Made by a program: the position numbers and the translations under genes
Shown here: piece by piece, positions 3,334 through 60,018 of the stretch
Position numbering within the stretch: position 1 is the first letter of the stretch
How the letters are laid out: every line of letters starts with the position of its first letter
NCBI GenBank assembly: GCA_020632665.1
Contig: JACKFC010000017.1
Coordinates: 40,423-104,422, forward strand
Reading direction: 5' to 3'
From: Deltaproteobacteria bacterium
Lineage (GTDB): Bacteria; Myxococcota_A; UBA9042
DNA: 64,000 bases
The notes under the pieces: model-generated
Databases searched by the model: none
What the model saw: the letters and a program-made list of their open reading frames with translations, nothing else
What the model was told of the DNA's origin: nothing

Positions 3334-5385
3334 ATGCAGCGCAAGTGCCCCGAGTGCGGCCTGGATACGGACGAACTCACCTGTCCCAACGACGGTGAGA
3401 TGACGCTCGTCATCAAGGAAGTCAGGAAGGCCGACAATATGGTCGGTCAAGTCATCGGCGGTCGGTACCGCGTCGAAAAGATCATCGGTCAAGGTGGCTT
3501 CGGCGCCGTCTACATGGCGCAGCACACCGCCACCGGCGATACCCTCGCGATCAAGGTCCTGCGGACCGACGTCGAAGGCGCCTCCGATGTCGTCGCCCGC
3601 TTCCGTCAGGAAGCCAAGGCCACCAGTCGGCTCAAGCATCCGAATACGGTGCGCGTCTTCGACTTCGGTCAGATGGACGACGGCAACCTCTTCTTGGCGA
3701 TGGAATTCCTCGACGGCAAGACGTTGACCGACGTGATGCGCGCCGAGGGCCCGCTGGCGCCGGAGCGCTTGGTCAAGATCGGCGTCCAGGTGCTGAAGTC
3801 GCTCTCCGAGGCGCACAGCAAGGGCCTGGTCCACCGCGATCTGAAGCCGGACAATATCTTCATCCAGAATATCCACGGCGAGCCGGATTTCGTCCGCGTC
3901 CTCGACTTCGGCATCGCCAAGTCGCTGGCCACCGATACCGAAGATCTGACCTCGACCGGCGCGGTGATCGGCACGCCGAAGTATATGTCGCCCGAGCAGG
4001 CGCGCGGCCAATCGGTCGACGCCCGGACGGATATCTACTCGCTGGGCGTGATCCTCTTCGAGGGCATCTCCGGTACGCCGCCCTTCATGGCCGAGACGCC
4101 GCTCGCGATGATCCTCCGCCGCGTGACCGAAGAGCCGCCGCGGGTCCACGACAGCATCGCGCGGCCAACTCCGATCGGCCTCTGCGACGTGGTGCTGAAG
4201 TCACTCTCGCGCCGGCTCGAAGAGCGATACGCCTCTGCGGACGAGTTCGCCGAGGCCCTGCAGTCCGCGCTCGACACGCCTGTCGCCTTGCCGGGCGGCG
4301 GCGTCAGCGCACCGGCCGGCGGCGCGGTCGGCGGCAGCACCGCCGCGTACGGCTCGCTTCCTGCCGGGGGCGACGAGACCGTCGACGTCTCGTCCGAGCA
4401 GGTTGCCGCGCTGACGGGCAATTCTTCGCAAGTCTTCGTCCACGGCGGTGCCGGCGACGACGACGCCACCTTCGAGGCGACCGCGGAGCAGATGGCCGCC
4501 GCGGCCGGCGGAGCGGACGTCACGATCCGCACCGAGACCGACGGACCGGCGACGATCGTCACGCCCGCGACCGCACCGCCCGCATCGCCGCCACCGGGGG
4601 GCGCCAGCGCCGCGCCGTCCTCAGCCCCGGCAGCGAAGGCGGGCTCTGCAGCGAAGGCGGGCCCAGCTGCGCCGCAGTCCAAGCCGAGCGAGCCGGTCCC
4701 GGTGGCCAGCAGAACGCCGTCGAGCCCTGCCCCCGCGGTCGGCGGCAACTCCGACAACAAGATGCCGCTCTACATCGGCGGCGGCATCGGCGTGCTGGTC
4801 TTGGTCCTGATGATCGTGATGATGTCGCGGCCGCAGCAGGTCGTCATCGCGCAGGGGCAGCTCACGTCGAGCGGTCAGGTCGTCGCGATGCAGCAACAGC
4901 AGGTCGCGCAGCAAGCTCCGCCGACGCCCGCGCCCGCGCCCGAGCCCAAACCGGAGCCCAAGCCCGAGCCGAAGCCCGAGCCGAAGCCCGAGCCGAAGCC
5001 TGAACTTGCCGCGGCCCCAGCACAGCAGCAGTCGACGATCGTGCTCGTCCGGGAGCCGGCGTCCGCCGCGGTGACCATCGACGGCAGCGCCATCGTCGGC
5101 GACAAGACGATCTTGCCGCCGGGTAAGCACAAGGTCGAAGCCTCCGCCTCCGGCTACGAGGGTTGGAGCGCCGAGGTCGAGGTCGCCGCTGGGCAGACGG
5201 AGGTCGTGCGCTTCGAGCTGCAGAAGAAGGCGCGCGCGCCGGTCCGCCGTCCGTCTGGTGGTGGTGGGGGTGGGACGAAGTCTGCTCCGGATCCGGTCGT
5301 GAAGGCCCCCGATCCGGTCAAGAAGCCACCGGAGAAGAAGCCGCCAGAGAAGAAGCCGCCGCCCGGTGGCCTGCTGATCGACTAG
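3334..5385 (+). CDS. Hanks-type Ser/Thr protein kinase with an N-terminal Cys4 zinc ribbon, a transmembrane (TM) helix and a C-terminal PEGA-like domain
   Basis: Kinase motifs: GQGGFGAVY, AIKVL, HRDLKPDN, DFG and GTPKYMSPE. N-terminal CPECG...CPNDG. TM segment MPLYIGGGIGVLVLVLMIVMM. Extracellular PEPK x6 and PPEKK repeats. PEGA-like block VTIDGSAIVGDKTILPPGKHKVEASASGYEGW. Confidence 0.9.
   Translation: MQRKCPECGLDTDELTCPNDGEMTLVIKEVRKADNMVGQVIGGRYRVEKIIGQGGFGAVYMAQHTATGDTLAIKVLRTDVEGASDVVARFRQEAKATSRLKHPNTVRVFDFGQMDDGNLFLAMEFLDGKTLTDVMRAEGPLAPERLVKIGVQVLKSLSEAHSKGLVHRDLKPDNIFIQNIHGEPDFVRVLDFGIAKSLATDTEDLTSTGAVIGTPKYMSPEQARGQSVDARTDIYSLGVILFEGISGTPPFMAETPLAMILRRVTEEPPRVHDSIARPTPIGLCDVVLKSLSRRLEERYASADEFAEALQSALDTPVALPGGGVSAPAGGAVGGSTAAYGSLPAGGDETVDVSSEQVAALTGNSSQVFVHGGAGDDDATFEATAEQMAAAAGGADVTIRTETDGPATIVTPATAPPASPPPGGASAAPSSAPAAKAGSAAKAGPAAPQSKPSEPVPVASRTPSSPAPAVGGNSDNKMPLYIGGGIGVLVLVLMIVMMSRPQQVVIAQGQLTSSGQVVAMQQQQVAQQAPPTPAPAPEPKPEPKPEPKPEPKPEPKPELAAAPAQQQSTIVLVREPASAAVTIDGSAIVGDKTILPPGKHKVEASASGYEGWSAEVEVAAGQTEVVRFELQKKARAPVRRPSGGGGGGTKSAPDPVVKAPDPVKKPPEKKPPEKKPPPGGLLID
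4936..5003 (+). repeat. Coding 12-bp microsatellite, about 5.5 copies, encoding the (PEPK)n linker
   Basis: cccgagccgaag-type units repeat directly at 12-bp periodicity inside the kinase ectodomain. Confidence 0.6.
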
Positions 5386-5535: not shown

Positions 5536-6591
5536 ATGCCTGGCCGCGGCTTCTCACCGATCCATCTACGACGCCTGCTCGGTGTCGCACTTTGCGGGGC
5601 GCTCGCGCTCGCCGTCGCCCCGGCGACGGTTCACGCTGACGCTGCGGAAGAGTCGCTCGAACTCGCCCGTGCTGGCGCAGGCCACTTCAAGGAGAAGCGC
5701 TACATCGAGGCAGCGCGCGCCTTCGAGTCGGCCTACCGGACCAACCCCGTCGATCCGCGCAACCTCCGCTACGCTGGTCGCGCCTGGGAGGAGGTCGGCG
5801 TCATCGACCGCGCGATCAGCCTCTTCGAGCGCTACCTTCAGGTCGAGAGCAACCCGGAGTATCGGCAGTCGATCGTGCCGCGTCTCGACAAGCTGAAGGC
5901 GACGACCGAGAAGGAGCGCGCTGAAGCGCTCGCGATGGCGACGATCAAATATCCGCAGGGCCGGCTCGAGGAAGAAGCCGCGCAGGCCTTCGAGCGGATC
6001 GGCGACAAGGCGAGCCTCGAGCGCGCCATCAAGCTCTACGAGACCTCCCGCCTCTGGGCCGAGACGCCGGAGGCGAAGGCCAAAGTCGACGCCAACATCA
6101 ACCGCGTCCGCCAGCGGATTCAGGACCTCGACAAGCCGAAGGACCCGAAGGGGCCGACCGGCCCGACTGGCCCGGTGAAGCCGGAAGAGCCGAAGAGCGA
6201 TACGATGGGCATGATCCTGTACGTCGCCGGTGGCGTCGCGCTGGTCGCAGGTGGCGGCCTCGGCGGCTACGGCTACCTCTCCTACGATCAGGCGCTGCAG
6301 GACAACGACGCCGGCAAGTTTGCCACCAAGGCGGCCTACGATTCGGCGACCGAGTCGGCGCGCTCGATGAACCGCGCCGGCTACGGACTCGCCGCCGTCG
6401 GCGTCGGCGTGCTCGGCTGGGCCGTGGTCCGTTCGGTGCTCTCGGGCGGAAACGACAAGGCCGCCGCACCCAAGGCCGACGGTGAGGGCGACGCGCCCGC
6501 CGACAAGGCCGAGGACAAGGATTCGAGCTTCTTCCTGCAGCCGCGACTCGATCGCGACGGCGCCGGCTTCGTGCTCGGCGGCCGCTTCTAG
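5536..6591 (+). CDS. Signal-peptide TPR-like protein with a C-terminal membrane anchor
   Basis: N-terminal LLGVALCGALALAVAPATVHA. Helical TPR-like repeats. A C-terminal hydrophobic stretch ILYVAGGVALVAGGGLGG. GGAGG ribosome-binding site before the ATG. Confidence 0.6.
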   Translation: MPGRGFSPIHLRRLLGVALCGALALAVAPATVHADAAEESLELARAGAGHFKEKRYIEAARAFESAYRTNPVDPRNLRYAGRAWEEVGVIDRAISLFERYLQVESNPEYRQSIVPRLDKLKATTEKERAEALAMATIKYPQGRLEEEAAQAFERIGDKASLERAIKLYETSRLWAETPEAKAKVDANINRVRQRIQDLDKPKDPKGPTGPTGPVKPEEPKSDTMGMILYVAGGVALVAGGGLGGYGYLSYDQALQDNDAGKFATKAAYDSATESARSMNRAGYGLAAVGVGVLGWAVVRSVLSGGNDKAAAPKADGEGDAPADKAEDKDSSFFLQPRLDRDGAGFVLGGRF

Positions 6592-19938: not shown

Positions 19939-22023
19939 TCAGCCGCCCACGGCGTAGCGCACGGTGTACTTCGTGGTGCCGCCGGAGGCCTGCGGGAAGC
20001 GGAGCTTCTTCGCGGCGCCGATGATGCACTTGCCGAGCTCGTCGCTCGAGTGCTTACCGATGACCTTGGCGTTGCTGACGCCACCCTGGGCGGCGACGTA
20101 GATGATGACCTTGATGGTCTCGGCGCCGGCGTCGATATCGCCGTGCAGCATATAGCAGCGCAGCACGTCCGAACGCTTGCCCGCGGCGATCTTGTCGACC
20201 TCGGCCTGGCTCATCTTCCGTCCAGCTCCGCCGCTGGAGGGCTCCTCGTCGTCCTCGTCCTTCTTGCTCGGCTGCGGCGCGGTCATCGCCTTGGCCTGCT
20301 TCTTGGCCCGCTCGGCGGCGAGGAGCTTGTCGATATCGTCCATATTCTTGGACGTCTTTGGCGGCTCTGGGGTCGGCTCGGGCTTGGTCTCGGCCTTCTT
20401 CGCCTCACGCGCCTTCTTCTCGGCCAGAATGCGGTCGATCTCGTCCATATTGCCGCTCGACGCGGGCTTCTCGGCCTTGGCTTCGACCTTGGCTTCGGGC
20501 TTCTTCTCGACCTTGGCTTCAGCCTTGGTCTCCGCCTTGGCCTCGGCCTTGGCGGAAGGCTTGGCCTCGGCCTTGACGACCGCCGCCTCTGCCTTCGGAG
20601 CGGTCTCGGTGCCGCCCGCATCAGCCTGCGCCGTCGCGGCGGCCGCTGCGTCCGCTGCAGCCTTCTCGGCGGCGGCCTTCTCCTCTGCAGCCTTCTTCTC
20701 GGCGGCGGCCTTCTCTTCTGCAGCCTTCTTCTCGGCGGCAGCCTTGTCGTCCGCGGCCTTCTTGTCTGCGGCGGCCTTGGCAGCAGCGATCCGCGCAGCT
20801 TCGGCCTGTGGCGCCGGCTGGACGACCTGCGGCGCAACGCCGCGGGTCTCCGTTCCCTTGCCCTTGTTCTTGGCGAGGAAGATGCCGCCGCCGACCAGCG
20901 CCAGGACCACGACGATACCGACGATCAGACCGGCACCCATGCCGCCCTCGTCATCCTTCTTCGCGGTGGCGGCTGCCTTGCCGGCGGCAACCGGGTTGGC
21001 GCCACCGACCGAGGGCTTGCCGCTCCCAGCCTTGCTGCTCGCGGTCGCTCCGCTCGTCTTCGCCGCTGGGGTCGACTTGGCCTGCGTCGCCGTCGCGCCA
21101 GCCGTGCCGGCCGCGGCCGCGGCTGCACCGGCCTTGCCACGGGCCGTGTCCTTCTTGCCCGCGGCAGCCTTCGCGTCGGCCGCGGTCTCTTCGGTCGGGA
21201 TGGCCTCGACGCGCGTCGCCGCCTCGTCCTGGCCGCTCGCCTTGGCCTCGGCCTTGCCCGGCAGCGCCACGACGCCAGCCTTGCGCTTGCCGGTGGGGAC
21301 GGCCGGGGGGGCGTCGCTCTCGGCCCCAGGAACCGGCGGCGGATCGGCGTCCTCGGAAGCCGGCACCGGCGGGGGCTCTGCCGCTGCCGTCGCGGCCGAC
21401 GTCACCGCGGCCTTGGCCACCGGGGGCGGCTCCTCGTCGACGTCGGCCTCCTCGGCGATCAGCGCGACGTCGCCGCCGGCAGGCAGCGCCGGAGGCTCGG
21501 CCTCGCCTTCGCCGCCTTCGCCGCCGTCGCCCTGGGCGTCCAGCTTGACGAGCAGCTCGATCATCGCGGCCGAGAGCTCGAGCGTCTGGGCGCGGCGCGG
21601 CGACTTCCGCTTGGCGACCGGCTCGGCCGAAGCGCCGCCGCTCACCTCGGCGACCTTCTCCTGGAAGGGCGCGACCTCGCGCACCGGCGTCCAGGCGCCG
21701 AATCCCTTGCGCCACACCAGGTCGTCCGCCTTGAGGCGGCCGGCACCGATGTGCTCCTGCACCTCCGCCTCGGTCAGCGGACCCACCTGTTTGCCTTCGA
21801 TGCCGGCGAACCAGACACGCTGCGGCGTCGTCGGTGCGGCCTCGGGCATGTCCATCTGGAAGGGCATCGTCGTGCGGCCAGCGTCGGCCTCGGTCGCGAC
21901 ACCGCGGACCCGGATCTCCGCTCCACACTTCTTGCAACCGACCTTGAAGACGCGGTTCTTGCCTTGAACCTTCTCGTCGGGGATTTTGTAGTTCGCGCCG
22001 CAGGCCGGGCAGCTGATCTTCAT
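19939..22023 (-). CDS. GltJ/AgmX-like protein: MJ0042-type zinc ribbon + GYF domain + TM + low-complexity Ala/Lys/Glu/Pro region + C-terminal AgmX-type domain
   Basis: MKISCPACGANYKIPDEKV...GCKKCGAEI zinc ribbon. RVWFAGIEGKQVGPLTEAEVQEHIGAGRLKADDLVWRKGFGAWTPV GYF-like segment. TM LIVGIVVVLALVGGGIFL. Conserved C-terminal ~80 aa (VLRCYMLHG...VIIYVAAQGGVSNAKVI...). Confidence 0.75.
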   Translation of the reverse strand: MKISCPACGANYKIPDEKVQGKNRVFKVGCKKCGAEIRVRGVATEADAGRTTMPFQMDMPEAAPTTPQRVWFAGIEGKQVGPLTEAEVQEHIGAGRLKADDLVWRKGFGAWTPVREVAPFQEKVAEVSGGASAEPVAKRKSPRRAQTLELSAAMIELLVKLDAQGDGGEGGEGEAEPPALPAGGDVALIAEEADVDEEPPPVAKAAVTSAATAAAEPPPVPASEDADPPPVPGAESDAPPAVPTGKRKAGVVALPGKAEAKASGQDEAATRVEAIPTEETAADAKAAAGKKDTARGKAGAAAAAAGTAGATATQAKSTPAAKTSGATASSKAGSGKPSVGGANPVAAGKAAATAKKDDEGGMGAGLIVGIVVVLALVGGGIFLAKNKGKGTETRGVAPQVVQPAPQAEAARIAAAKAAADKKAADDKAAAEKKAAEEKAAAEKKAAEEKAAAEKAAADAAAAATAQADAGGTETAPKAEAAVVKAEAKPSAKAEAKAETKAEAKVEKKPEAKVEAKAEKPASSGNMDEIDRILAEKKAREAKKAETKPEPTPEPPKTSKNMDDIDKLLAAERAKKQAKAMTAPQPSKKDEDDEEPSSGGAGRKMSQAEVDKIAAGKRSDVLRCYMLHGDIDAGAETIKVIIYVAAQGGVSNAKVIGKHSSDELGKCIIGAAKKLRFPQASGGTTKYTVRYAVGG

Positions 22024-22131
22024 GGCGGGGAGCCTCCGTCAGGTCGCGCAAAGGGGGCGAGAATCTAGCGCGCACGTCGCGACTTGGCAACGTCGCCGAC
22101 ACGCACCGACGCACGAGGTCGCGCGTCGATC

Positions 22132-22602
22132 TCAATCCGCCAGAAGCTGCGCCAATGCCGCGGGCGGCGTGACCCCCAGTGCCTCGGTCAAGAGACGCGC
22201 CGCGACGGCGCCGTCCCTGCCGCCCAAAAAGCGGAGCAATGCCTCGATCAGGACGGTCGATCCGGCGTCGATCGCGGCCTCTCCGTTCGGTCGAGCGCGC
22301 ACCACTTGGCGGTACCATTGCGCGTGCCGCCGCAGGCCTTCCGCGTCGTCGTGGCGAAGCGCGAGGACCAATTGTCGCGTGGTCGCGTCGAAATCGGCCT
22401 CGAGGATGCGGATGCCCTTGATGCCGCGATGCGGCGGTAACTCGGGCCGGCGTGTGGCGAGTGTCTGCCCCGCCCAGCCGGTCAGCGAGCGTCGCACAGC
22501 TTCCAGTCGGTCGGCGAGCGCAGCCCGGCCGGCGCCCGGATCGAGAAAATCGATGCCCTCGGCCAGCCAGTCTGCGTCGTCGTCGTCGTCGAAGATCCCC
22601 AT
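22132..22602 (-). CDS. Hypothetical acidic N-terminus protein, 156 aa (MGIFDDDDDADWLAEGIDFLDPG...)
   Basis: Internal ATG. The upstream part of the 243-aa track ORF is Ser-rich and non-coding in appearance. Sits 108 nt upstream of the GltJ-like gene on the same strand. Confidence 0.45.
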   Translation of the reverse strand: MGIFDDDDDADWLAEGIDFLDPGAGRAALADRLEAVRRSLTGWAGQTLATRRPELPPHRGIKGIRILEADFDATTRQLVLALRHDDAEGLRRHAQWYRQVVRARPNGEAAIDAGSTVLIEALLRFLGGRDGAVAARLLTEALGVTPPAALAQLLAD

Positions 22603-22666
22603 CGCGCCCCCTGGGCAGCCGGCCACAGACGTTGCGTCGCGGCGGGTCGTCGGGCATAGGAAGGCC

Positions 22667-23635
22667 ATGATCACGGCCATCGTCAACCCAAAGGCACAGA
22701 CGCGACACGCCGAGCTGGTCCACGCGCTGACATCTGCCAGCGGTCGGCTCCGCATCCTGGCTGCCGACGAACCGTCCGCCATCGACGCGCTGCTCTCGGA
22801 TCCGGACCAACTCGCGGCCACGGAACTGATCATCGTCGCCGGCGGCGACGGCACAGTCTCCAACTTGCTGACCCGCGCCGGCCTCTATGATGCCCTGGAT
22901 CGGCTGCCGCCGATGCTGCTGCTGCCGGTCGGCGATGTCGGCACCGCGGCGCGCGAGCTCGTCGGCGCCGGCGCGGTCGACGCGCTCGCCAGCCGCGTGC
23001 TGGTCGCGTGGGGCCGCGGCGTCCGCCGGATCGCACAGCTGCCGGTGGTTCGCCTGCGGGTCGGCGGCGAGTCGAGTCGCGTTGGCATCACCGCGAGTCT
23101 CGGCGCGATCGCCCGCGCTCATCGCGACTATGCCGCCGCCGTCGTGCCCGGCAGCGTCGGGCTCTCCGAGGTTCTGCTGCGGTTTGGGACCGGCAGCCTA
23201 CCGGACGATCGATTTCGTCGGATCGCGGCGGAAGTGCGCTGGCAAGATCCACTCGGCCGTTCGGGCGCGATGCAAGGCGTCACCGCCGCGCTGCTGAGCC
23301 CACTTCCCGGCTTCTTCGGTTGGGTGCGGCCCTTCCCCGCGGTGCGCGGCCTCGCGGTCGACGGTGTGCATGGGCTGGTCTCCGGCCTGGGGCCATTCGC
23401 GACCAAGCTCTCGCTGCCTCGCCTGCTGCGTGGCGTCCGACCCAATGGCCGCCGCTTCCACGCCGGGCCATTGGCAAAGCTGCAGTTCGAGGTCGAAGAT
23501 GATCCGGACGTCGCCGTCGTCGATGGCGAACGGGTCGCCTTGCCACCCGGCGCCACCGTGAGCGTGGAGGCGTTGGCCCCGCTGCGCGTCGTCGCGTGGC
23601 GGCCGATCCCCAAGGGCGAGATCGTGCCAGGGTGA
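22667..23635 (+). CDS. Diacylglycerol-kinase catalytic-domain lipid kinase (YegS/BmrU-like)
   Basis: LIIVAGGDGTVSNLL motif. Start at the internal ATG (MITAIVNP); the upstream 215 codons of the track ORF are Arg/Ser-rich. Confidence 0.75.
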   Translation: MITAIVNPKAQTRHAELVHALTSASGRLRILAADEPSAIDALLSDPDQLAATELIIVAGGDGTVSNLLTRAGLYDALDRLPPMLLLPVGDVGTAARELVGAGAVDALASRVLVAWGRGVRRIAQLPVVRLRVGGESSRVGITASLGAIARAHRDYAAAVVPGSVGLSEVLLRFGTGSLPDDRFRRIAAEVRWQDPLGRSGAMQGVTAALLSPLPGFFGWVRPFPAVRGLAVDGVHGLVSGLGPFATKLSLPRLLRGVRPNGRRFHAGPLAKLQFEVEDDPDVAVVDGERVALPPGATVSVEALAPLRVVAWRPIPKGEIVPG

Positions 23636-23772
23636 GACAGGTGTCTCACAAAGTGCCTTATTTTGACGCAACCGATCAAGTCGCGAAAACACAACGGAAT
23701 CTCTCTTCCTGGTGTTCCAAAGTGGAGCGCTTTCGCCAAGATGGGCGCCCCGCTCGCTTCGGCTTGCCAGTG

Positions 23773-23787
23773 TGGCCAGCCAACTGC
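23773..23787 (+). promoter_or_regulatory. Possible sigma54 (-24/-12) promoter TGGCCAGCCAACTGC
   Basis: The GG and GC dinucleotides sit at the consensus spacing TGGC-N8-TGC. It lies inside the lower-GC non-coding region upstream of the clp-like gene. Identified by pattern match only. Confidence 0.2.
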
Positions 23788-24114
23788 GCCAAAGTGGCGC
23801 AGTGGAGAAGTTTCTATCTCGTGCTTTTCGGCTGTTGTCGATTCGCCGTGGGAGCGACTTGCAAGTTGGCGTGGAACATGCAACACACCTACTTGCAGAG
23901 CGAGACGCGTGGGCAGAATCCCTATGGCTTCCCTGACCACCCTGTCACCTTGTTCAATCCGCGCCGTGTTTCGCACGGCGCGTCCCTCGGCCGCAGCAGA
24001 CGCGGTCACCATCGCCGGAGCGCGCATCGTTAGGGAGTGCGCCCACCGGAGCCTTCGTGGCGGTGACCGAAGAGTTGTGGGCTCATTTCCTCGAACTCCC
24101 ACCTCGCTCTCTTC

Positions 24115-24162
24115 CCACCGGCGGCCGGAAACGGCCGCCGGTGGGGTTTTTGGCTCGTTTTC
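24115..24162 (+). terminator. Rho-independent terminator CCACCGGCGGCCG-GAAA-CGGCCGCCGGTGG followed by GGTTTTTGGCTCGTTTT
   Basis: Perfect 13-bp GC stem, GAAA loop and a U-rich tail on the plus strand. It ends 1 nt before the TTG that opens the clp-like ORF in the ORF track. Confidence 0.7.
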
Positions 24163-24228
24163 TTGGCAACGCGCTCCGAATCGATAGGCTGCCGCCGACG
24201 GTCAGCGTCGGCGCGTCGAGGGGGGCAA

Positions 24229-26793
24229 GTGAGCGATCTGGAGCACGAGCATCTCGCGCCGGAGACGGTCGTCCCCGAGTTGGTTCGCGTCATGGCGTGC
24301 GCCGATGATTTGGCCCGTGGTGCCGGACATCCGCGCGGCTCGGTCCATCTCCTGCTTGCTTTGCTGACCCGGCCGTCGACGGCCCGCGACGTCCTGCTCG
24401 AAGCCGGGCTCGACCATCGTTCGCTGCTGGCCCATTTTCGTGCGTCCGGCGACGAGATCCTCGATGCCGATCCGGAGGGGACCGTCGCCGAGATCTTGCG
24501 CCAGGCGCGCGCGCTGGCCGCGCGTTCCTCCGGCGAGGTCGACCCCGCGGGGCTGCTCGCGAGCCTGTTGCGCGTTCGCTCGGCCGCCGCGCCTGGGTTG
24601 TTGCGCCGCGCGGGCGTCGATGTCGCTGCCCTGCGCGCGCGCATGATCGGCGCCATCGTCCACGATCTCGAATTCGGAGGAGCCCGCGGCCGCGGCGCCC
24701 GCCGGCCGTCGCGTCCCTCCCTGCCCTCGGTCACGACCGCGCCACAGCTGCCGACGGTTCAGCCGCGCAACCAGGGCGAATCCCTGGCGGCGCCGCGTCC
24801 GCTCCCCGTCGCCGACGGCTTGGTGCCGGCACCGCGGACTCCGCGCCGCGCGCGCACCGCTCCCCCGGCGCAGGTCGCGCTGCCCGAGCCGGCGGCGATG
24901 CCCTCGATGGAGGACGCGCCGACCATCGTCCTCGAGGTCGAGCCGCCGCCGATCCCGCAGCGGCGCGCCTTCGAACTCGACCCCGAGCGTTATCCGACGC
25001 TGTGCCGCATCGGTCGCAACCTGACCCGCGCCGCCCTGGATGGTGAGACGACCCCGCTCGTCGGCCGGCAACAGTTGGTCGACGCCGTCATCGACGTCCT
25101 CTTGATGCGCCGGGTCAACAACCCGTGCCTGGTCGGTGAAGCCGGCGTCGGTAAGACCGCGCTGGTCGAGGGGCTCGCCGCGCGGATCGCCGGCGATGCC
25201 GCGCGCTACGGCCGGCTCGCCGAAGCCGTCATCGTCGAGGTGCCGGTCTCGGCCTTGCTCGCCGGGACGTCGCTGCGCGGCTCGTTCGCCGAGCGGATGG
25301 CCGCGCTGCGGGCCGAGGTCGCCGCTGCCGAGGGCGGAATCATCGTCTTCATCGACGAGATCCACACGCTGATGGGCGCCGGCGCAGGCGATGGGCCGCT
25401 CGACGCCGCCAACGACCTGAAGACGGCGCTAGCGCGCGGGCATTTCCCCCTGATCGGCGCGACCACGCGAGTCGAATACCGCCGCTTCATCGAGGCCGAC
25501 CCGGCGATGGAGCGCCGCTTCCAGGTCATCGACGTGCCGGAGCCTTCGGTCTCCGAGGCGGTCGAGATCCTGGTCGGGCTGGCGCCGACCTTCCGCGAGC
25601 ACCACGGCATCCCCTACAGCCACGCGGCCATCGTCTCGGCGGTCGAGCTCAGTCGCCGCTTCATCCCTGACCGCGCGCTACCGGACAAGGCCGTCGCGGT
25701 CCTCGACCGGGCAGGAGCGCAGGCCCGCCGTCGGGGGCAAGCGCAGGTCGACCGGGCCGACGTCGCACGTGCGGTCGCCTCGCTCGGCACCGTCCCGCTC
25801 GAGCGGCTGCTCGACGACGAGCAGCGCCGGCTGCGCGAACTCGACGTCGAGCTCGGCAAGAGCGTTCTCGGCCAGCCCGAGGCGGTGCGGACGATCGCCC
25901 GCCGGGTGGCGCGCAACCACGCCGGCCTCGGCGGCGAACGACCGCTTGCCAGCTTCGTCTTCGCCGGGCCGCCTGGCGTCGGCAAGGGCGTCGCCGCTGC
26001 CGCGCTCGCCGAGCAGCTCTACCTGCGTTCCGACGCCGTGGCCCGCTTCGACATGAGCGATTACACCGAGTCGCACAGCGTGTCGCGGCTGATCGGCTCG
26101 CCGCCGGGCTATGTCGGCCACCAGCAGGCCGGGCTGCTCGCGGACGCGCTGCACCGTCGACCCTACCGCGTCCTGCTCTTCGAAGAGCTCGACCGCGCAG
26201 CGCCCGAGATCGCCGCGCTGGTTCAGCAATTGGTCGAGACCGGGAGCGTCGTCGACAACCAGGGCCGTCGCCTCGACGCGCGCAACGCCGTCATCGTGGT
26301 GACCACCACGCTCTCGCCGGAGCACCTCGGCCTCGGCCGCCCCGGGGTCGGATTCCTCGGCGCCCCGAGCAACAAGGGGCCGGATCCGGAGCGCTTTGCT
26401 GCTGCCGTGCGGCAGCGACTCGGCGGCGAGTTGGTCAGCCGGGTCGACGACGTCGTCCTCTTCTCGCCGCTGGGTCGAGAGGCGTTGGCCGAGGTGGCGC
26501 GCGCGGAGCTGCAGCGCCTCAGCACCACGCTCTACGACGAGCGCTTGGTCCGGGTCGACTTCTCCCCGTGCGTCGTCGAGATGGTCCTTGCCGCCGAGAT
26601 CCGAGAGGAGCTCGGCGCCCGCTGGCTGCGCAACCGGCTCGCCAGCGCGGTCGAAGATCCGCTCGGCGAAGCGCTGCTCGAAGGGCGACTGCGCCCCGGT
26701 GTGCGGGCCCGGGCGCGCGGTGTCGACGGAGCGCTGCTCTTCGAGATCGTGCCTTCTGCGACCGAGCCGCGCAGCGCCGCCGTCGGTCCCTGA
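24229..26793 (+). CDS. Clp/Hsp100-family AAA+ ATPase (ClpA/ClpC-like, no M-domain) with an intact first ATPase module (D1) and a degenerate second module (D2)
   Basis: Clp_N repeats (EHLLLALL-like). D1 Walker A GEAGVGKTA and Walker B IVFIDEIH. D2 Walker A GPPGVGKG (the Thr is replaced) and D2 Walker B VLLFEEL (the Asp is replaced by Phe). GTG start with GAGGGGGG upstream. An alternative TTG at 24163 immediately follows the terminator. Confidence 0.85.
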   Translation: MSDLEHEHLAPETVVPELVRVMACADDLARGAGHPRGSVHLLLALLTRPSTARDVLLEAGLDHRSLLAHFRASGDEILDADPEGTVAEILRQARALAARSSGEVDPAGLLASLLRVRSAAAPGLLRRAGVDVAALRARMIGAIVHDLEFGGARGRGARRPSRPSLPSVTTAPQLPTVQPRNQGESLAAPRPLPVADGLVPAPRTPRRARTAPPAQVALPEPAAMPSMEDAPTIVLEVEPPPIPQRRAFELDPERYPTLCRIGRNLTRAALDGETTPLVGRQQLVDAVIDVLLMRRVNNPCLVGEAGVGKTALVEGLAARIAGDAARYGRLAEAVIVEVPVSALLAGTSLRGSFAERMAALRAEVAAAEGGIIVFIDEIHTLMGAGAGDGPLDAANDLKTALARGHFPLIGATTRVEYRRFIEADPAMERRFQVIDVPEPSVSEAVEILVGLAPTFREHHGIPYSHAAIVSAVELSRRFIPDRALPDKAVAVLDRAGAQARRRGQAQVDRADVARAVASLGTVPLERLLDDEQRRLRELDVELGKSVLGQPEAVRTIARRVARNHAGLGGERPLASFVFAGPPGVGKGVAAAALAEQLYLRSDAVARFDMSDYTESHSVSRLIGSPPGYVGHQQAGLLADALHRRPYRVLLFEELDRAAPEIAALVQQLVETGSVVDNQGRRLDARNAVIVVTTTLSPEHLGLGRPGVGFLGAPSNKGPDPERFAAAVRQRLGGELVSRVDDVVLFSPLGREALAEVARAELQRLSTTLYDERLVRVDFSPCVVEMVLAAEIREELGARWLRNRLASAVEDPLGEALLEGRLRPGVRARARGVDGALLFEIVPSATEPRSAAVGP

Positions 26794-27702
26794 TCAGCCG
26801 ACGGCGCCGACCCAGACCGCTCGCGGCTTGCCATAGACGTCCGACAGCTCGGCAAAATCCTCCGCGGTGCCGATCTCCCGCAGCAATGCCGGGAAACGCG
26901 CCGCGAACGGGCGCTCGCCATGCGTCAGCACCTCGATCGCGCGGACAACGACTGCGTCCTGTGTCGTCTCCTCGGGCGGGGCCCGTGGCACCACGACGCG
27001 CGTGAGGGCCAGCGCTCCGCCGTGCTCGGCGAGGACGGCTTCACCCGCGGCATCGGAGCCGACGAGGCAGTTGCGCAGCGTGATCTCACCGCCGCCACCC
27101 GCTCCGCCACCGGCCAACGCGACGCTGCCGCGTCCGCCACGGTTGCCGGCGAAGGTACAGCCGACCGCGCGGATCGTGCCGCCACGGCTGGCGAAGAGCG
27201 CGCCACCGCCGGCCCCATCGGCTTGGTTGTCGTGAAAGACGCAGCTCTCGAGCTCGACCAGCGCCGGGCCGCTGCATCGCACCGCGCCTCCTTGCGGCGC
27301 CCGATTGCGGGTCAGCCGACAGCGGAGCAGGCGCACCTCGCCGCGCTGCACGTCGACGGCGCCGCCGCCTTCGCCGCGGCCGCGGCCGCCGGAGAGCAGG
27401 CAACCGACGACCTCGACCTCGGCAGGCATGTAGACCTGAAGGGCCGCGCCAGCGCCGGTTTCCGGTCCTCGAAGGACGAGTGACTCGATCCGAACCCGCT
27501 CCGCTCCCTCGAGCGAGAGCGCGGGGCCTCGATGGCCGACGATGCTGGCGCTGCCCATGCCGCCAGCGGCGACGAGGGTGATGTCGTGTGGGAGTGCAAC
27601 GGGTCCGCGATGCACGCCGGGGCCGAGCGCCACGGTCGATCCCGGCGGCAGCCCGTGCAGGCGCGGGCCGAGCGGGCCGTCGGCGACGTCGTGGCGAAGC
27701 AA
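26794..27702 (-). CDS. Parallel beta-helix repeat protein (pectin-lyase-like fold); true start uncertain
   Basis: Gly-rich ~22-aa repeats, for example ...GGGALFASRGGTIRAVGCTFAGNRGGRGSVALAGG. The ORF begins directly after the calpain gene's TAG, in the same frame. The first codon is TTG. Confidence 0.5.
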   Translation of the reverse strand: MLRHDVADGPLGPRLHGLPPGSTVALGPGVHRGPVALPHDITLVAAGGMGSASIVGHRGPALSLEGAERVRIESLVLRGPETGAGAALQVYMPAEVEVVGCLLSGGRGRGEGGGAVDVQRGEVRLLRCRLTRNRAPQGGAVRCSGPALVELESCVFHDNQADGAGGGALFASRGGTIRAVGCTFAGNRGGRGSVALAGGGAGGGGEITLRNCLVGSDAAGEAVLAEHGGALALTRVVVPRAPPEETTQDAVVVRAIEVLTHGERPFAARFPALLREIGTAEDFAELSDVYGKPRAVWVGAVG

Positions 27703-27704
27703 GG

Positions 27705-28583
27705 CTACATTCCCGTGATGTTCACGTTCGAGTAGAACTTCTTGAAGTCCTCGAGGGTGAGCTCGAAGATGCCGTCGTCCTTGCCGTCCTTGCCGGGCTC
27801 GACGCGACCCCAGGGGTTGCGCAGCTTGACGTAGCGCTTCTTGTCCTTGCCGCGACCTTTCTCGTACGCGCCGAGGATGGTGTAGGCGTGCCAGGCGTAG
27901 AGGTTGGTGCCGGCGTAGATCGCCTCGTCTTCCTTGCCGCGGGTGCCGGCGGACATCGCTTGGTTGTTGTCCGAAGCCTTCTTGATCCGGCTCCAGAGCA
28001 GGTCGTCCGGCGAGCTATCGGTCGACATATAGCTGACGCGCTTGCCCGAGAGGGCCTCGAGCGCCTCGGCCGAGCTGCCGCCCTCGCCGACGACGTTGTA
28101 GCCGCCCTTGAGCTGGGCCCAGGCCTTCTCGTAGAGCGCTGGCCAGAGCTCGCGACCGCCATCTTTGGTCTGCTGACCCTTGGCGTAGCGCAGATCGGAG
28201 TAGCCCTTCTGCTGCGGGAGGTCGCCGTCGATCGTCACCCACGTCTCGGAATAGTTCGATTCCCAGTAGTTCCGCTTGGTGAAGAAGCGGACCTTGTAGG
28301 TGTTGTCGCCGTTGTCGACGATGCCGGTCTTGATCAGGTTCGGATTCTCCGCCGCGACGGCCGAGAGGGCGGCGACGAAATAGCAATCGGCCACCGCGCC
28401 CTGGATCACGTCGGACGCGCGCACGCCGTAGTAGAAGAGGCGGTTGCGCTCGTCCTGGCCGGCTTTGCCGTAGCTCCAATCGTCGCCTTGGTGCTTGTCG
28501 CGCAGGCGCGGGTCCTGCAGGTCACGCGGCTCGATCTTCGGCTTCTTGTCTTTCTTCTGCTGTGGCTGGGCGATATCCGGCAT
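27705..28583 (-). CDS. Calpain-like (C2 family) cysteine protease catalytic domain, 292 aa, no signal peptide
   Basis: Catalytic Cys block QGAVADCYFVAALSAVA, catalytic His block AWHAYTILG, catalytic Asn block VKLRNPWG, and a domain end resembling calpain GIFELTLEDFKKFYSNVNI. ATG with GGAGG 6 nt upstream. Confidence 0.8.
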   Translation of the reverse strand: MPDIAQPQQKKDKKPKIEPRDLQDPRLRDKHQGDDWSYGKAGQDERNRLFYYGVRASDVIQGAVADCYFVAALSAVAAENPNLIKTGIVDNGDNTYKVRFFTKRNYWESNYSETWVTIDGDLPQQKGYSDLRYAKGQQTKDGGRELWPALYEKAWAQLKGGYNVVGEGGSSAEALEALSGKRVSYMSTDSSPDDLLWSRIKKASDNNQAMSAGTRGKEDEAIYAGTNLYAWHAYTILGAYEKGRGKDKKRYVKLRNPWGRVEPGKDGKDDGIFELTLEDFKKFYSNVNITGM

Positions 28584-28771
28584 GACGGCCTCCGGCGCGG
28601 CTTGCTGCGCTCGACCGATAGCGTAGGTCTCGGCCGGATCTGCGGCAAGGCAAGCGGTGCCGGCGCTGTCGACCGCTGGGGGCTCTGCGCCCCGGGGCGG
28701 ACACTCGCCGTGCGACGCGCGTTTCGCTAGAGTCCACCGCCGGCACGGTACGTCGAGCAGGAGTACGCAGG

Positions 28772-29896
28772 ATGAAGTGTTGGTCAGCAACGGGATGGTC
28801 CAGCCGAGCGCTGCTGCTCGGGTCGGTGCTCGGGACGATTCTGCTCGCCGGATGCGGCGGCGATGAAGATGGCAAGGGCGATGCCGCTGCGACGGACGCC
28901 GTGGTCGACGGGACCGACGACGACGCTGCCGACTCTGGAGCGGCCGACGCTGGCAGTGACGGCAAGACGGAAGGAACGCTGAAGTGGATCGCCTTCGCCC
29001 CGCCGGTTGACGGAAAGATGACCGATGGCGCCGCGCTCGGTGCAGCCGGCGAGGGCTACCTGCTGACCGCGGAGGACGGCGGCCTGGTTCGCTTGCTGCC
29101 GACCGGACCGCAGGTCATCACCGTCCCCGGTGTCGGCACCACCGACCTGCGCGCGGTCTACGTCGACGCCACCGGCGAGGCTTGGATCGCCGGCGACGCC
29201 TCGATCCTGGTCCAGGGCAAGGGCAGCGAGTGGCAAGTCCGGGCCGAGATCCCGCCGTCGCCGGTGACCCGCTTTCGCGCCATCGACGGCGACGGCGACG
29301 TGGTCTGGGCGGTCGGCGACGACGCCCGCGCCTACCGCAAGGCCGGCGACGCCGTCTTCGCGGCGGAGGACGTGACCGTCACCGACGGCGAGGCGATCGG
29401 CAGCGGTGGCAACTTCGTCTCGGTGCAGGTCGTCGGCGACGCCGTGTGGATCGCGGTCGACAAGGGCGCGACCAGCGCTGGCCTCGCCTTGGAGAAGACA
29501 GCCGCGGGCTGGAAATCCTATCCGCTCGATACCGCTCCGCGCGCGCTGTGGCGTGGTGCCGACGGCGCCACCTGGGTCGTTGGTGGCACCGTCGAGCCCT
29601 ACGTCGCGCGCCTGCAGGCCGGGGCCTTCGTCAAGATGGACGGGCTGCAGTGGTCGCTCGGCTTCACCGCGGTGGACGGCACCGGCGCCGACGACGTCGT
29701 GCTCGGCGCGTTGAAGGGCCAGATCCGCAGCTGGGACGGCAAGGCCTTCGCCGTCGTCCTGCCGAAAGCGCCGCCGGGGACGGTCAACCCCTTCGCCCAG
29801 CCGAGCGGCGATATCGCGGCTTTCGCCCGCGCCGCGGTCGATGATTGGCTGGTCGTGACCCCCTTCTACGTCTACCGCTACGCGGTGCAGCCTTGA
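28772..29896 (+). CDS. Lipoprotein, hypothetical (Asp/Gly-rich linker then a beta-rich domain)
   Basis: Lipobox LLAGCGG. Confidence 0.6.
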   Translation: MKCWSATGWSSRALLLGSVLGTILLAGCGGDEDGKGDAAATDAVVDGTDDDAADSGAADAGSDGKTEGTLKWIAFAPPVDGKMTDGAALGAAGEGYLLTAEDGGLVRLLPTGPQVITVPGVGTTDLRAVYVDATGEAWIAGDASILVQGKGSEWQVRAEIPPSPVTRFRAIDGDGDVVWAVGDDARAYRKAGDAVFAAEDVTVTDGEAIGSGGNFVSVQVVGDAVWIAVDKGATSAGLALEKTAAGWKSYPLDTAPRALWRGADGATWVVGGTVEPYVARLQAGAFVKMDGLQWSLGFTAVDGTGADDVVLGALKGQIRSWDGKAFAVVLPKAPPGTVNPFAQPSGDIAAFARAAVDDWLVVTPFYVYRYAVQP

Positions 29897-49571: not shown

Positions 49572-50648
49572 ATGGCCGATCTCGCCTGGATCGGCGCGGG
49601 TGAGACCGCGTTCGTCTGCCGGCACGGCCACGAGGCTCCCCTCGTCGAAGAATTGCATCGCCTCGGCGCCGCTCCGCGCCCGACGCCGCTGCCCGGATTG
49701 GTGGCTGCCTCGTCTGCCGCCGCCGACCTCGATCCGGTCTGGGCACTGCAGACCCTTCCGCGCGTCCGCGTCCTGCGCGGCGCCTCGGTGCGTGCCCTCG
49801 CCGAGGCCGCGGCAGAGGGGCTGAGCGAGAGACTCGACGCGACCGAGGCGAGCTGGGATTGGCATTGGCTGCTGCCTGCGACCTTGCGTGGCAACCCGCG
49901 GCCGCCGATGCAGCGTCGGGCCGGGTTGGTCCAGGCCGGCGCGGCCGATTGGCTGCAGCGCCGACGCCGACGTCTCGCCCGGCGCCGGGTCGACGGCTCG
50001 CCCGTGCAGCCCGCGGAGTATTTGGCGCAACATCTGCTGCTCGACGCCGAGACGATGCTGCAGAGCGTCGCGCCGTGCCGCCGCCTCGCGGTCGGCAGCA
50101 GCTGGCCGAGCCCGCTGCCGGCCGGTCACGCCGCCGTCCCCGACGATCCCGCCGCGCCGGCGAGCAGCTATCGCAAGCTCGAGGAGGGCTTCGCCTTGCT
50201 CGGCCGCTGGCCCGCCGCCGGGGAATTGGCCGTCGACCTGGGCGCCTCGCCCGGCGGCTGGACCCGTGTGCTGCGGCGCTACGGCGCCCGGGTCATCGCC
50301 GTCGACCGCGCCCCGCTGGCCGCCGACCTCGAAGCCGATGCGGACGTCGACGCACGCATCGGCGACGCCTTTCGCTTCGAGCCGGACGCACCGCTCGATT
50401 GGTTGGTCTCCGATATCGTCGCCTACCCCGAGCGGATCATCGAGCTGCTCGGCAGCCTCGGCACGCTCGCGCCGGAGCGGGGCGTGGTGCAGATGAAGTT
50501 CCGCGGCGACGTGGATTGGGCGGCCATCGACACCGGGCTGCAGACGGCGGCAGGGCAGGGCTATGCTGCCCGCGCCCGACACGTCTTCAACGACAAGAAC
50601 GAAGTGACGATCGCGCTGCGGCGCGCTGGGAAGGAGGCAATTCGATGA
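49572..50648 (+). CDS. rlmM: FtsJ-like rRNA 2'-O-methyltransferase, RlmM-like
   Basis: SAM site DLGASPGGWT, about 360 aa with an N-terminal THUMP-like part. Start at Met37 of the track ORF. Confidence 0.65.
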   Translation: MADLAWIGAGETAFVCRHGHEAPLVEELHRLGAAPRPTPLPGLVAASSAAADLDPVWALQTLPRVRVLRGASVRALAEAAAEGLSERLDATEASWDWHWLLPATLRGNPRPPMQRRAGLVQAGAADWLQRRRRRLARRRVDGSPVQPAEYLAQHLLLDAETMLQSVAPCRRLAVGSSWPSPLPAGHAAVPDDPAAPASSYRKLEEGFALLGRWPAAGELAVDLGASPGGWTRVLRRYGARVIAVDRAPLAADLEADADVDARIGDAFRFEPDAPLDWLVSDIVAYPERIIELLGSLGTLAPERGVVQMKFRGDVDWAAIDTGLQTAAGQGYAARARHVFNDKNEVTIALRRAGKEAIR

Positions 50649-59569: not shown

Positions 59570-60018
59570 CGGGGCAAGGTCGCCGGCGCCGGGCGGACCA
59601 TCCAGATATGCGGAATCTCGGCCTCATCGTATTCTTCTCCGACCGCGGTCCAGCCCATGCGGGTGTACCAGGTGCGGAGGTAGGCTTGCGCCGAGAGCGC
59701 CGCCGGTCGGTCGCCGATGACGGCGTGCACCGCCTCCATGAGCTGCGAGCCGACGCCGCCGCGCTGCAGGTCGCGCGCCACCGCCACACGGCCGACCTTG
59801 ACCGGATCCGAGTCGAGAAAGACGCGCGCGGTCGCGACGACGCGGCCCTGCTCATTCGTACCCCAGACGTGGACGCACTCCGGGTCGCGGCCGTCGACTT
59901 CGGCCTCGCAGGTGATCTTCTGCCCGACCACGAAGACCTCGTTGCGCAGCCACAGCATATCGTGCAGCTCGCGCAGGCCGAGGTCGGCGAAGGGCGCGTG
60001 GCGAAACTCCAACTTCAT
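59566..60018 (-). CDS. GNAT acetyltransferase, ElaA-like
   Basis: Start at Met13. VFVVGQ...GRVVATARV...RGGVGSQLM. Confidence 0.7.
   Translation of the reverse strand: MKLEFRHAPFADLGLRELHDMLWLRNEVFVVGQKITCEAEVDGRDPECVHVWGTNEQGRVVATARVFLDSDPVKVGRVAVARDLQRGGVGSQLMEAVHAVIGDRPAALSAQAYLRTWYTRMGWTAVGEEYDEAEIPHIWMVRPAPATLPR

Follow-up and report, generated by a model that had tools for sequence, protein, structure and literature searches.

The gap of 590 bp between a DAGK_cat-domain gene and a clp-like gene, at positions 23636 to 24228 of a 64,000-nucleotide (nt) stretch of contig JACKFC010000017.1 from a member of the Myxococcota_A (the whole stretch that was analysed, hereafter the window), is very probably occupied by an independent gene whose product is a structured non-coding RNA of about 260 nt, preceded by a predicted sigma-54 promoter and closed by a terminator. 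The RNA gene is real, conserved and previously uncatalogued, and the comparison of related loci supports its existence, the type of its promoter, the fold of its RNA and its independence from clp. Expression, activation and mode of action we infer, and our best guess is a trans-acting regulatory RNA that would be switched on by a sigma-54 activator. The conserved position of the promoter and the U tract of the terminator set the extent of the RNA at approximately 23893-24151. The elements that delimit it are the following:

23893..24151, plus strand: predicted non-coding RNA, about 260 nt; 5′ end from promoter geometry, ± about 3 nt; 3′ end at the U tract
23867..23882, plus strand: predicted sigma-54 promoter (-24/-12), TGGCGTGGAACATGCA, with GG at 23868-23869 and GC at 23880-23881
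24113..24151, plus strand: intrinsic terminator; stem 24113-24146 of 15 pairs (13 G-C), GAAA loop and UUUUU at 24147-24151

The window as a whole has a G+C content of about 70%, and between 23600 and 24200 this drops to 0.575-0.655, as compared to approximately 0.70-0.78 for the flanking genes. The GC-by-codon-position pattern of the flanking genes was seen in no frame of the gap and the open reading frames (ORFs) crossing it had no Pfam match, which bears out the description of this region by the first-pass annotation as a lower-GC, non-coding gap of 590 bp.

A scan of GTDB representative genomes guided by the Clp protein yielded L001 as the one close orthologous locus, its Clp protein sharing 68% identity with that of the window. 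The 310 bp upstream of its clp gene align to window positions 23921-24230 with about 82% identity, a value exceeding the 68% of the Clp protein; the alignment contains small indels of 1, 2, 2, 1 and 3 nt, along with compensatory changes in the hairpin and in the terminator stem. Further loci were obtained by fetching contigs that encode more distant Clp orthologues and by scanning metagenomes with the two-block pattern ATCCCTA-N92-120-CATYGTTAGGGAGTG. An earlier metagenome pattern, GCCGG-N3-7-GCATCGTTAGGGAGTG, was over-specific and gave no matches, and a scan of viral_contigs for the RNA gave none either. Altogether, 19 distinct versions of the RNA were collected from metagenome and metagenome-assembled genome contigs (window, L081, L082, L084, L086, L088, L089, L090, L091, L092, L093, L095, L096, L097, L100, L102, L103, L105 and L106), at loci with a G+C content of 0.42-0.72. 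The neighbouring SDR protein, used to place the low-GC members, was uninformative, its matches having at most about 50% identity and coming from mixed phyla. Conservation upstream of clp orthologues, a check that had been suggested for this region, was found in both sequence and structure.

An ORF of 87 codons (ATG at 23924, to 24187) is open within the RNA and its ATG comes directly after a conserved motif. That it encodes a small protein has next to no probability: the indels relative to L001 are mostly not triplets, the ATG is changed to AAG, ATC or ATA in L082, L091, L089 and L093, there is neither a Pfam match nor codon periodicity, and the substitutions preserve base pairs instead. On the grounds of the non-triplet indels, the non-conserved ATG and the missing Pfam match, the ORF was rejected as a gene.

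The predicted promoter is shared by most of the family. A GG-N10-GC element with 26-36 nt between its GC and the motif AUCCCUA was read by eye in 14 of the 18 members with a 5′ flank, for example as TGGCACGGAACGTGCT in L082, TGGCACAGTCATTGCA in L086, TGGCACGAATCTTGCA in L089 and TGGCACGATTTTTGCA in L102, with similar elements elsewhere. The strict form GGCRYR-N5-TGC, allowed to lie within a 26-nt interval, was present in 8 of the first 13 members versus an expectation of 0.0017 for each (binomial P about 1e-19), and the motif is retained while the spacers diverge between members. What characterizes a sigma-54-dependent small RNA (sRNA), a -24/-12 promoter near TGGCAC-N5-TTGCW placed to start the RNA, was found. 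The first-pass annotation had pointed to another sigma-54-spaced site, TGGCCAGCCAACTGC at 23773-23787; its GG-N10-GC spacing is present, but we rejected it as a promoter because it is not conserved, a 7-nt insertion breaking the spacing in the closest orthologue. Two more matches to TGGCRYR-N5-TGCW occur in the window, at 50023-50038 (plus strand) and 59765-59780 (minus strand), bringing the number found to 3 versus 0.64 expected.

Some members carry a different element in this place. In L091, the sigma-54 element is replaced by a sigma-70-type promoter, TTGACA-17-TATCTT (6363-6391), from which transcription would start at the same point, a few nt before the helix P1 described below. In L092 (about 3355-3385) and in L095, the element is TGGACA-N17-TCTAAT, which is sigma-70-like. 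Judged by these motifs, L091, L092 and L095 represent a natural promoter swap before the same RNA.

The position of the promoter also bears on whether the region could be a long 3′ untranslated region of the DAGK-like gene, with the terminator ending that mRNA. A same-strand DAGK-like gene does lie upstream in most members, even in L091 where clp is missing, and no terminator is present between the stop at 23635 and position 24113; nevertheless we consider this explanation very improbable, since the gap itself contains a conserved promoter whose distance from the RNA is fixed, and cross-lineage conservation starts about 25 nt upstream of AUCCCUA, that is at the predicted start site and not at the stop codon. 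Moreover, the upstream gene differs in L099 (PPDK) and L092 (a short unannotated ORF after an SDR gene), and in L082 and L105 it is on the minus strand.

The RNA delimited in this way is predicted to be highly structured, with a z-score of -4.6 for the fold of the whole molecule. The parts of the fold that are supported by sequence comparison are a closing helix (P1), a core with a three-way junction, a near-invariant loop of 13 nt and a pseudoknot. From 5′ to 3′ the elements are:

23897..23913, plus strand: 5′ strand of P1, AGAGCGAG ... GUGGG
23918..23924, plus strand: near-invariant 5′ motif AUCCCUA, of which 23919-23924 pair with loop positions 24031-24036
23925..23959, plus strand: first linker, G-poor and C/U/A-rich, predicted single-stranded; G 8-16% in 12 of 12 members analysed
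23960..23982, plus strand: hairpin A, containing GCGCCGUG-UUUCG-CACGGCGC
23989..24082, plus strand: core domain, comprising P2, an internal loop, P3 and a three-way junction with P4 and a small hairpin P5
24026..24038, plus strand: apical loop of P4, AUCGUUAGGGAGU, 13 nt, almost invariant, with four single-base variants among 19 members
24083-24097, plus strand: second G-poor linker, after P2; G 0-20%
24098..24110, plus strand: 3′ strand of P1, CCCAC CUCGCUCU

Support for helix P1 comes from the 7-mer located just upstream of CAGN-AUCCCUA: in 8 of 12 members, its exact Watson-Crick complement follows 13-17 nt after P2. Six such 7-mers occur (in DNA letters GAGCGAG, GAGTGAG, GAGCAAG, GAATGAG, GAGCGGA and GGGCGAG), with the partner pairs GAGCGAG/CUCGCUC, GAGUGAG/CUCACUC, GAGCAAG/CUUGCUC, GAAUGAG/CUCAUUC, GAGCGGA/UCCGCUC and GGGCGAG/CUCGCCC. 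A control in which own and cross pairings were compared with RNAduplex discriminated weakly, because the 45-nt tails include the terminators and because G-U pairs blur purine-rich 7-mers; the Watson-Crick test of 7-mers at fixed positions was clearer. The hairpin that the first-pass annotation had placed at about 23958 corresponds to hairpin A, present at 23960-23982, and its position is kept in every relative while its sequence differs. Likewise, the two linkers keep their composition and not their sequence, being low in G although most of the loci have 61-72% G+C.

For the core, unconstrained minimum-energy folds showed the same architecture in 11 of 13 distinct members, and all z-scores were negative. 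A covariance model (R1) for which only the window and L081 were used found 8 held-out members, full-length, with 21-32 bits versus 18 bits for the best noise hit, and its matches fall at the coordinates that had been delimited independently. In the Infernal alignment of the core, both-sided (compensatory) changes occur in 26 of 28 pairs; 92.9% of the cells pair, a percentage whose weight is reduced by its being inflated, as the alignments were fitted to the structure. The covariation score was 0.852 versus 0.05-0.11 with slid partners, and none of 500 shuffles reached it. A model rebuilt from ten members recovered 3 more held-out members and five new lineages, and gave no hit in 80 control clp loci (about 1 Mb). 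MAFFT alignment followed by RNAalifold, applied to the full RNA or to the core, yielded no more than the P4 stem, since the variable regions were misaligned, and was replaced by per-sequence folds, by Infernal and by a hand-built structural alignment (A5, with N for gaps); the latter is 100% paired by construction, which counts against taking it as support, and was thus used solely for pair-type counts.

A shorter variant of the RNA is found in L093 (148-468, minus strand). The 5′ AUCCCUA is retained, as is the P4 hairpin with its invariant loop, directly followed by a U tract; P2, P3 and P5 are missing, and the P1 3′ strand is upstream of P4.

The pseudoknot consists of 6 bp between UCCCUA (23919-23924) and the complementary UAGGGA of the P4 loop (24031-24036). 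The 5′ motif and the loop hexamer are invariant in the first 13 members, partly since the search pattern required both, so that covariation could not be tested there. Among the members found via the protein and the model there are two changes of the motif, each exactly compensated: L100 has AUCUCUA with the loop UAGAGA, and L103 has AUCCCUG with the loop CAGGGA. The loop variants of L084 and L106 fall outside the paired hexamer. Two observations count against the pseudoknot: its support amounts to two events, the observed value being reached by 17 of 500 shuffles, and L088 (20-285) has the core and the loop together with an uncompensated AUCGCUC. The latter could be a true exception or an assembly artefact, as the contig is short and the motif is near its end.

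The 3′ end of the RNA is set by the intrinsic terminator, whose GC stem and U tract had already been noticed in the first-pass annotation and are present with the stem at 24113-24146. The stem covaries with that of L001/L081 (CCCACC/GGUGGG versus CCGAAC/GUUCGG), and a GC hairpin followed by a U tract or a U-rich tail was read by eye in every member with a recovered 3′ end; a terminator was called by program in the window and in L092. Between the terminator and the clp-like gene lies one further element:

24163..24190, plus strand: candidate sigma-70-type promoter of the clp-like gene, TTGGCA-N16-TAGGCT, a conserved footprint

Its two hexamers are identical in the window and in L081 whereas the spacer is identical at 7 of 16 positions, and similar TTGnnn-N16-TAnnnn elements occur in L082, L086 and L089. 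Since TTGGCA-N16-TAGGCT fails the sigma-70 consensus filter of the program used, this candidate is to be read as a footprint alone.

These elements are relevant to the possibility of an attenuation leader controlling clp, raised in the first-pass annotation. The clp mRNA would then have the structured RNA as its 5′ leader, an attenuator or riboswitch-like device in which a ligand, a protein or temperature would set the formation of the terminator at 24113-24151. In agreement with such a leader, P1 closes the fold immediately before the terminator, which is the classic riboswitch layout, the RNA precedes a same-strand clp gene in the window, L081-L089, L100, L102, L103, L105 and L106, and the CCCAC/GUGGG sequences present in both P1 and the terminator of the window would make an alternative pairing possible. 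However, the CCCAC duplication is not found in L081, and the adjacency to clp says little by itself because the whole neighbourhood is syntenic. Furthermore, the RNA is followed by an unrelated gene or by a gene on the opposite strand in three contexts, namely L091 (DAGK-like gene, RNA, convergent DUF2520 gene, no clp), L092 (SDR gene, RNA, minus-strand tRNA) and L099 (PPDK gene, RNA, ABC-F gene). Conversely, the clp orthologues of L107 (1257-1500) and L109 (1209-1500) are preceded by gaps of 245-293 bp, and their loci contain no copy of the RNA, suggesting that the RNA was lost or moved in some lineages, and the RNA was not found in the more distant Myxococcota clp loci L002-L008 either. Together with the promoter-like footprint before clp, the varied contexts and the RNA-less clp orthologues make the attenuation leader improbable and argue for an independent sRNA. 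This other proposal of the first-pass annotation is upheld by the conserved promoter, the covarying fold and the varied contexts of the RNA, with its length corrected from about 350 to about 260 nt. For annotation, the consequence is that the 590-bp gap should not be taken for a clp leader.

The region upstream of the promoter contains operator-like palindromes, located in the window 65-260 bp upstream of the sigma-54 element (strand not assigned):

23634..23647: candidate activator site, everted palindrome GAGACA-GG-TGTCTC inside GTGAGACAGGTGTCTCAC, overlapping the TGA stop of the DAGK-like gene
23717..23728: first repeat copy CCAAAGTGGAGC, a degenerate CCA-N3-TGG half-palindrome and possible second operator/activator site
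23786..23800: perfect palindrome GCGCCAAAGTGGCGC, whose core is the second repeat copy

The motif TGTCTC-N5-GAGACA, with up to 2 mismatches, was found 130-285 nt upstream in 7 of 9 sigma-54-type members, versus a background of 6e-5 per nt, and in 0 of the 4 that lack a sigma-54 element; the form carried by the window, L081 and L106 is everted. Besides the window, TGTCTC-type palindromes were noted in the upstream regions of L082, L084, L086, L089, L090, L096, L097, L100, L102, L103, L105 and L106. The second type belongs to the direct repeat reported in the first-pass annotation at 23717 and 23789, which is indeed there: its two 12-nt copies, CCAAAGTGGAGC (23717-23728) and CCAAAGTGGCGC (23789-23800), are 92% identical and 72 nt apart. 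Palindromes of this CCA-N3/4-TGG type are also upstream in L081 (TGCGCCAGAATGGCGCA), L082 (GATCCAGAATGGATC), L086 (GATCCGAAATGGATC), L100 (TCCATAATGGA) and L105, and GCGCCAAAGTGGCGC resembles the NtrC-type site TGCACC-N5-GGTGCA. Both types are enriched upstream and co-occur with the sigma-54 element only, and it is plausible that both are binding sites of NtrC-family activators.

Regarding catalogued RNAs, the Infernal scan with Rfam that had been suggested as a check was run: none of the 4227 models of Rfam 15 matched the window or 14 related loci at gathering thresholds, and when E values up to 10 were allowed, the hits in three members were all chance ones (miRNA, snoRNA and Esr41 models). 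A full-text literature search for the loop sequence returned only unrelated primers.

We favour a regulatory RNA acting in trans. Bound at the palindromes upstream, an enhancer-binding protein of the NtrC family would turn on transcription upon a signal, the RNA would be freed at the terminator, and the clp-like gene would be transcribed from its own promoter. Most speculatively, the G-poor, C/U-rich linkers, displayed on a rigid scaffold, might pair with G-rich ribosome-binding regions of mRNAs, or might bind a protein. Several points weigh against this interpretation. Promoter, start site and termination are all predictions, made from the sequence alone, and the fold z-scores of individual core domains are modest (-0.9 to -5.1), the ends of the domains having been picked from the folds. 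No gene for an enhancer-binding protein was identified beside the RNA; a seed for base pairing would not usually vary in sequence as the G-poor linkers do; and matches complementary to the invariant loop, sought across the window, stayed at chance level. Most members have the RNA before a same-strand clp gene, leaving room for coupling by read-through. Finally, every member comes from an uncultivated organism, and the low-GC members are without taxonomic placement.

An alternative is a stand-alone gene whose RNA does not act by pairing and serves instead as a decoy, a ribonucleoprotein (RNP) component, a ligand sensor or a ribozyme. The complex rigid fold (P1, three-way junction and pseudoknot), the seven loop bases outside the pseudoknot, counted as invariant, the linkers that keep composition and not sequence, and the failure to find a complementary site within the window all lean towards such an RNA, which we regard as possible but rather unlikely. 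No conserved neighbour gene stands ready to encode a partner protein, no repeated protein-binding motif was identified, and the present data do not separate this explanation from base pairing. The specific idea of a CsrA decoy was dropped, given that by our own estimate GGA motifs are not above the expectation from base composition. Taking the structural argument further, the RNA might belong to an unrecognised class of complex-folded RNAs spread across uncultivated lineages (locus GC 42-72%) and switched by sigma-54, in which loop and scaffold would serve for ligand sensing, catalysis or as an RNP core; this we put forward as a tentative idea of fairly low probability.

The genes on either side of the favoured trans-acting RNA are:

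22022-23635, plus strand: DAGK_cat-domain gene (lipid-kinase-like), ORF of 537 codons with its TGA stop at 23633-23635
24229..26793, plus strand: gene for a Clp/Hsp100-family double-AAA+ ATPase, GTG start after GAGGGGGG; a neighbour, outside the RNA

The DAGK_cat ORF is probably over-extended at its 5′ end, as its homologues have about 296-325 aa and align to residues 210-531. A minus-strand ORF at 22132-22863 corresponds in position to a conserved hypothetical gene of related loci. For the clp ORF, both the TTG (24163) and the GTG (24229) are where the first-pass annotation put them. Its label of a heat-shock-type Clp ATPase could not be established, because the protein scores far under the NCBIfam cut-offs for ClpB, ClpA and ClpV. 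The block of genes around the RNA is conserved between the window (19939-29896) and L081, L084, L086 and L100, in the order Zn-ribbon/GYF protein (-), hypothetical (-), DAGK-like (+), RNA, Clp-like ATPase (+), beta-helix protein (-), calpain-like Peptidase_C2 (-) and hypotheticals (+). The presence of a bacterial calpain-like protease beside a divergent Clp ATPase is an unusual pairing.

Taken together, these data describe a well supported RNA family that is missing from Rfam and occurs in poorly studied uncultivated lineages, apparently myxobacterial (Myxococcota), with relatives of lower GC, and they provide a working covariance model and a testable fold for it. The family joins an unusually elaborate fold to a sigma-54 promoter and conserved operator palindromes, and since such a promoter and such palindromes would drive an elaborate RNA, the latter looks like the output of a signal-transduction pathway. 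The swap of promoter type, mostly sigma-54 and in some members sigma-70-like, offers a handle on the evolution of the regulation of the RNA.

Compared with known systems, the RNA shares with riboswitches and attenuators a P1-closed fold directly before an intrinsic terminator, and differs from them in that the downstream gene is not conserved and clp is preceded by a promoter footprint of its own; a conserved antiterminator was not seen, a systematic search for one not having been made. 6S RNA, of about 180-200 nt, has a long closing stem, a central bubble and a terminal stem, whereas the core described here is a three-way junction with a pseudoknot and the RNA has no Rfam match. The raiA motif, OLE and ROOL, found by comparative genomics and of unknown function, are RNAs of more than 200 nt with covarying multi-helix folds, pseudoknots, near-invariant loops and varied gene contexts. 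The RNA of this study is set apart from them by a different fold, different lineages and the lack of a credible Rfam match at E = 10, and a sigma-54 promoter is, to our knowledge, not a feature of these three.

In the Gammaproteobacteria, GlmY/GlmZ (activated by GlrR), Qrr (LuxO) and CrcZ (CbrB) are transcribed from sigma-54-dependent -24/-12 promoters under an NtrC-family activator with upstream palindromes, and end at intrinsic terminators; CrcZ sequesters a protein. The GlrR sites, TGTC-N10-GACA, resemble the TGTCTC-N5-GAGACA found here. In contrast, there is no similarity of sequence or structure to any of these sRNAs, nor a credible Rfam match at E = 10, and we know of no pseudoknotted three-way-junction core in GlmY/GlmZ, Qrr or CrcZ.

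As far as the analogy goes, the nearest analogue is the Pxr sRNA of Myxococcus xanthus, which is much shorter than about 260 nt. Pxr has a predicted sigma-54 promoter, an upstream enhancer-binding region and a stem-loop-rich body with a predicted fold of three stem-loops, of which SL1 and SL2 are conserved, and it is located downstream of pxrR (PMC5684412). Unlike Pxr, the RNA described here is predicted to contain a three-way junction and a pseudoknot, and its upstream gene is DAGK-like, with no adjacent NtrC-like regulator; like Pxr, it appears to be the product of a stand-alone, apparently myxobacterial sRNA gene read from a predicted sigma-54 promoter.

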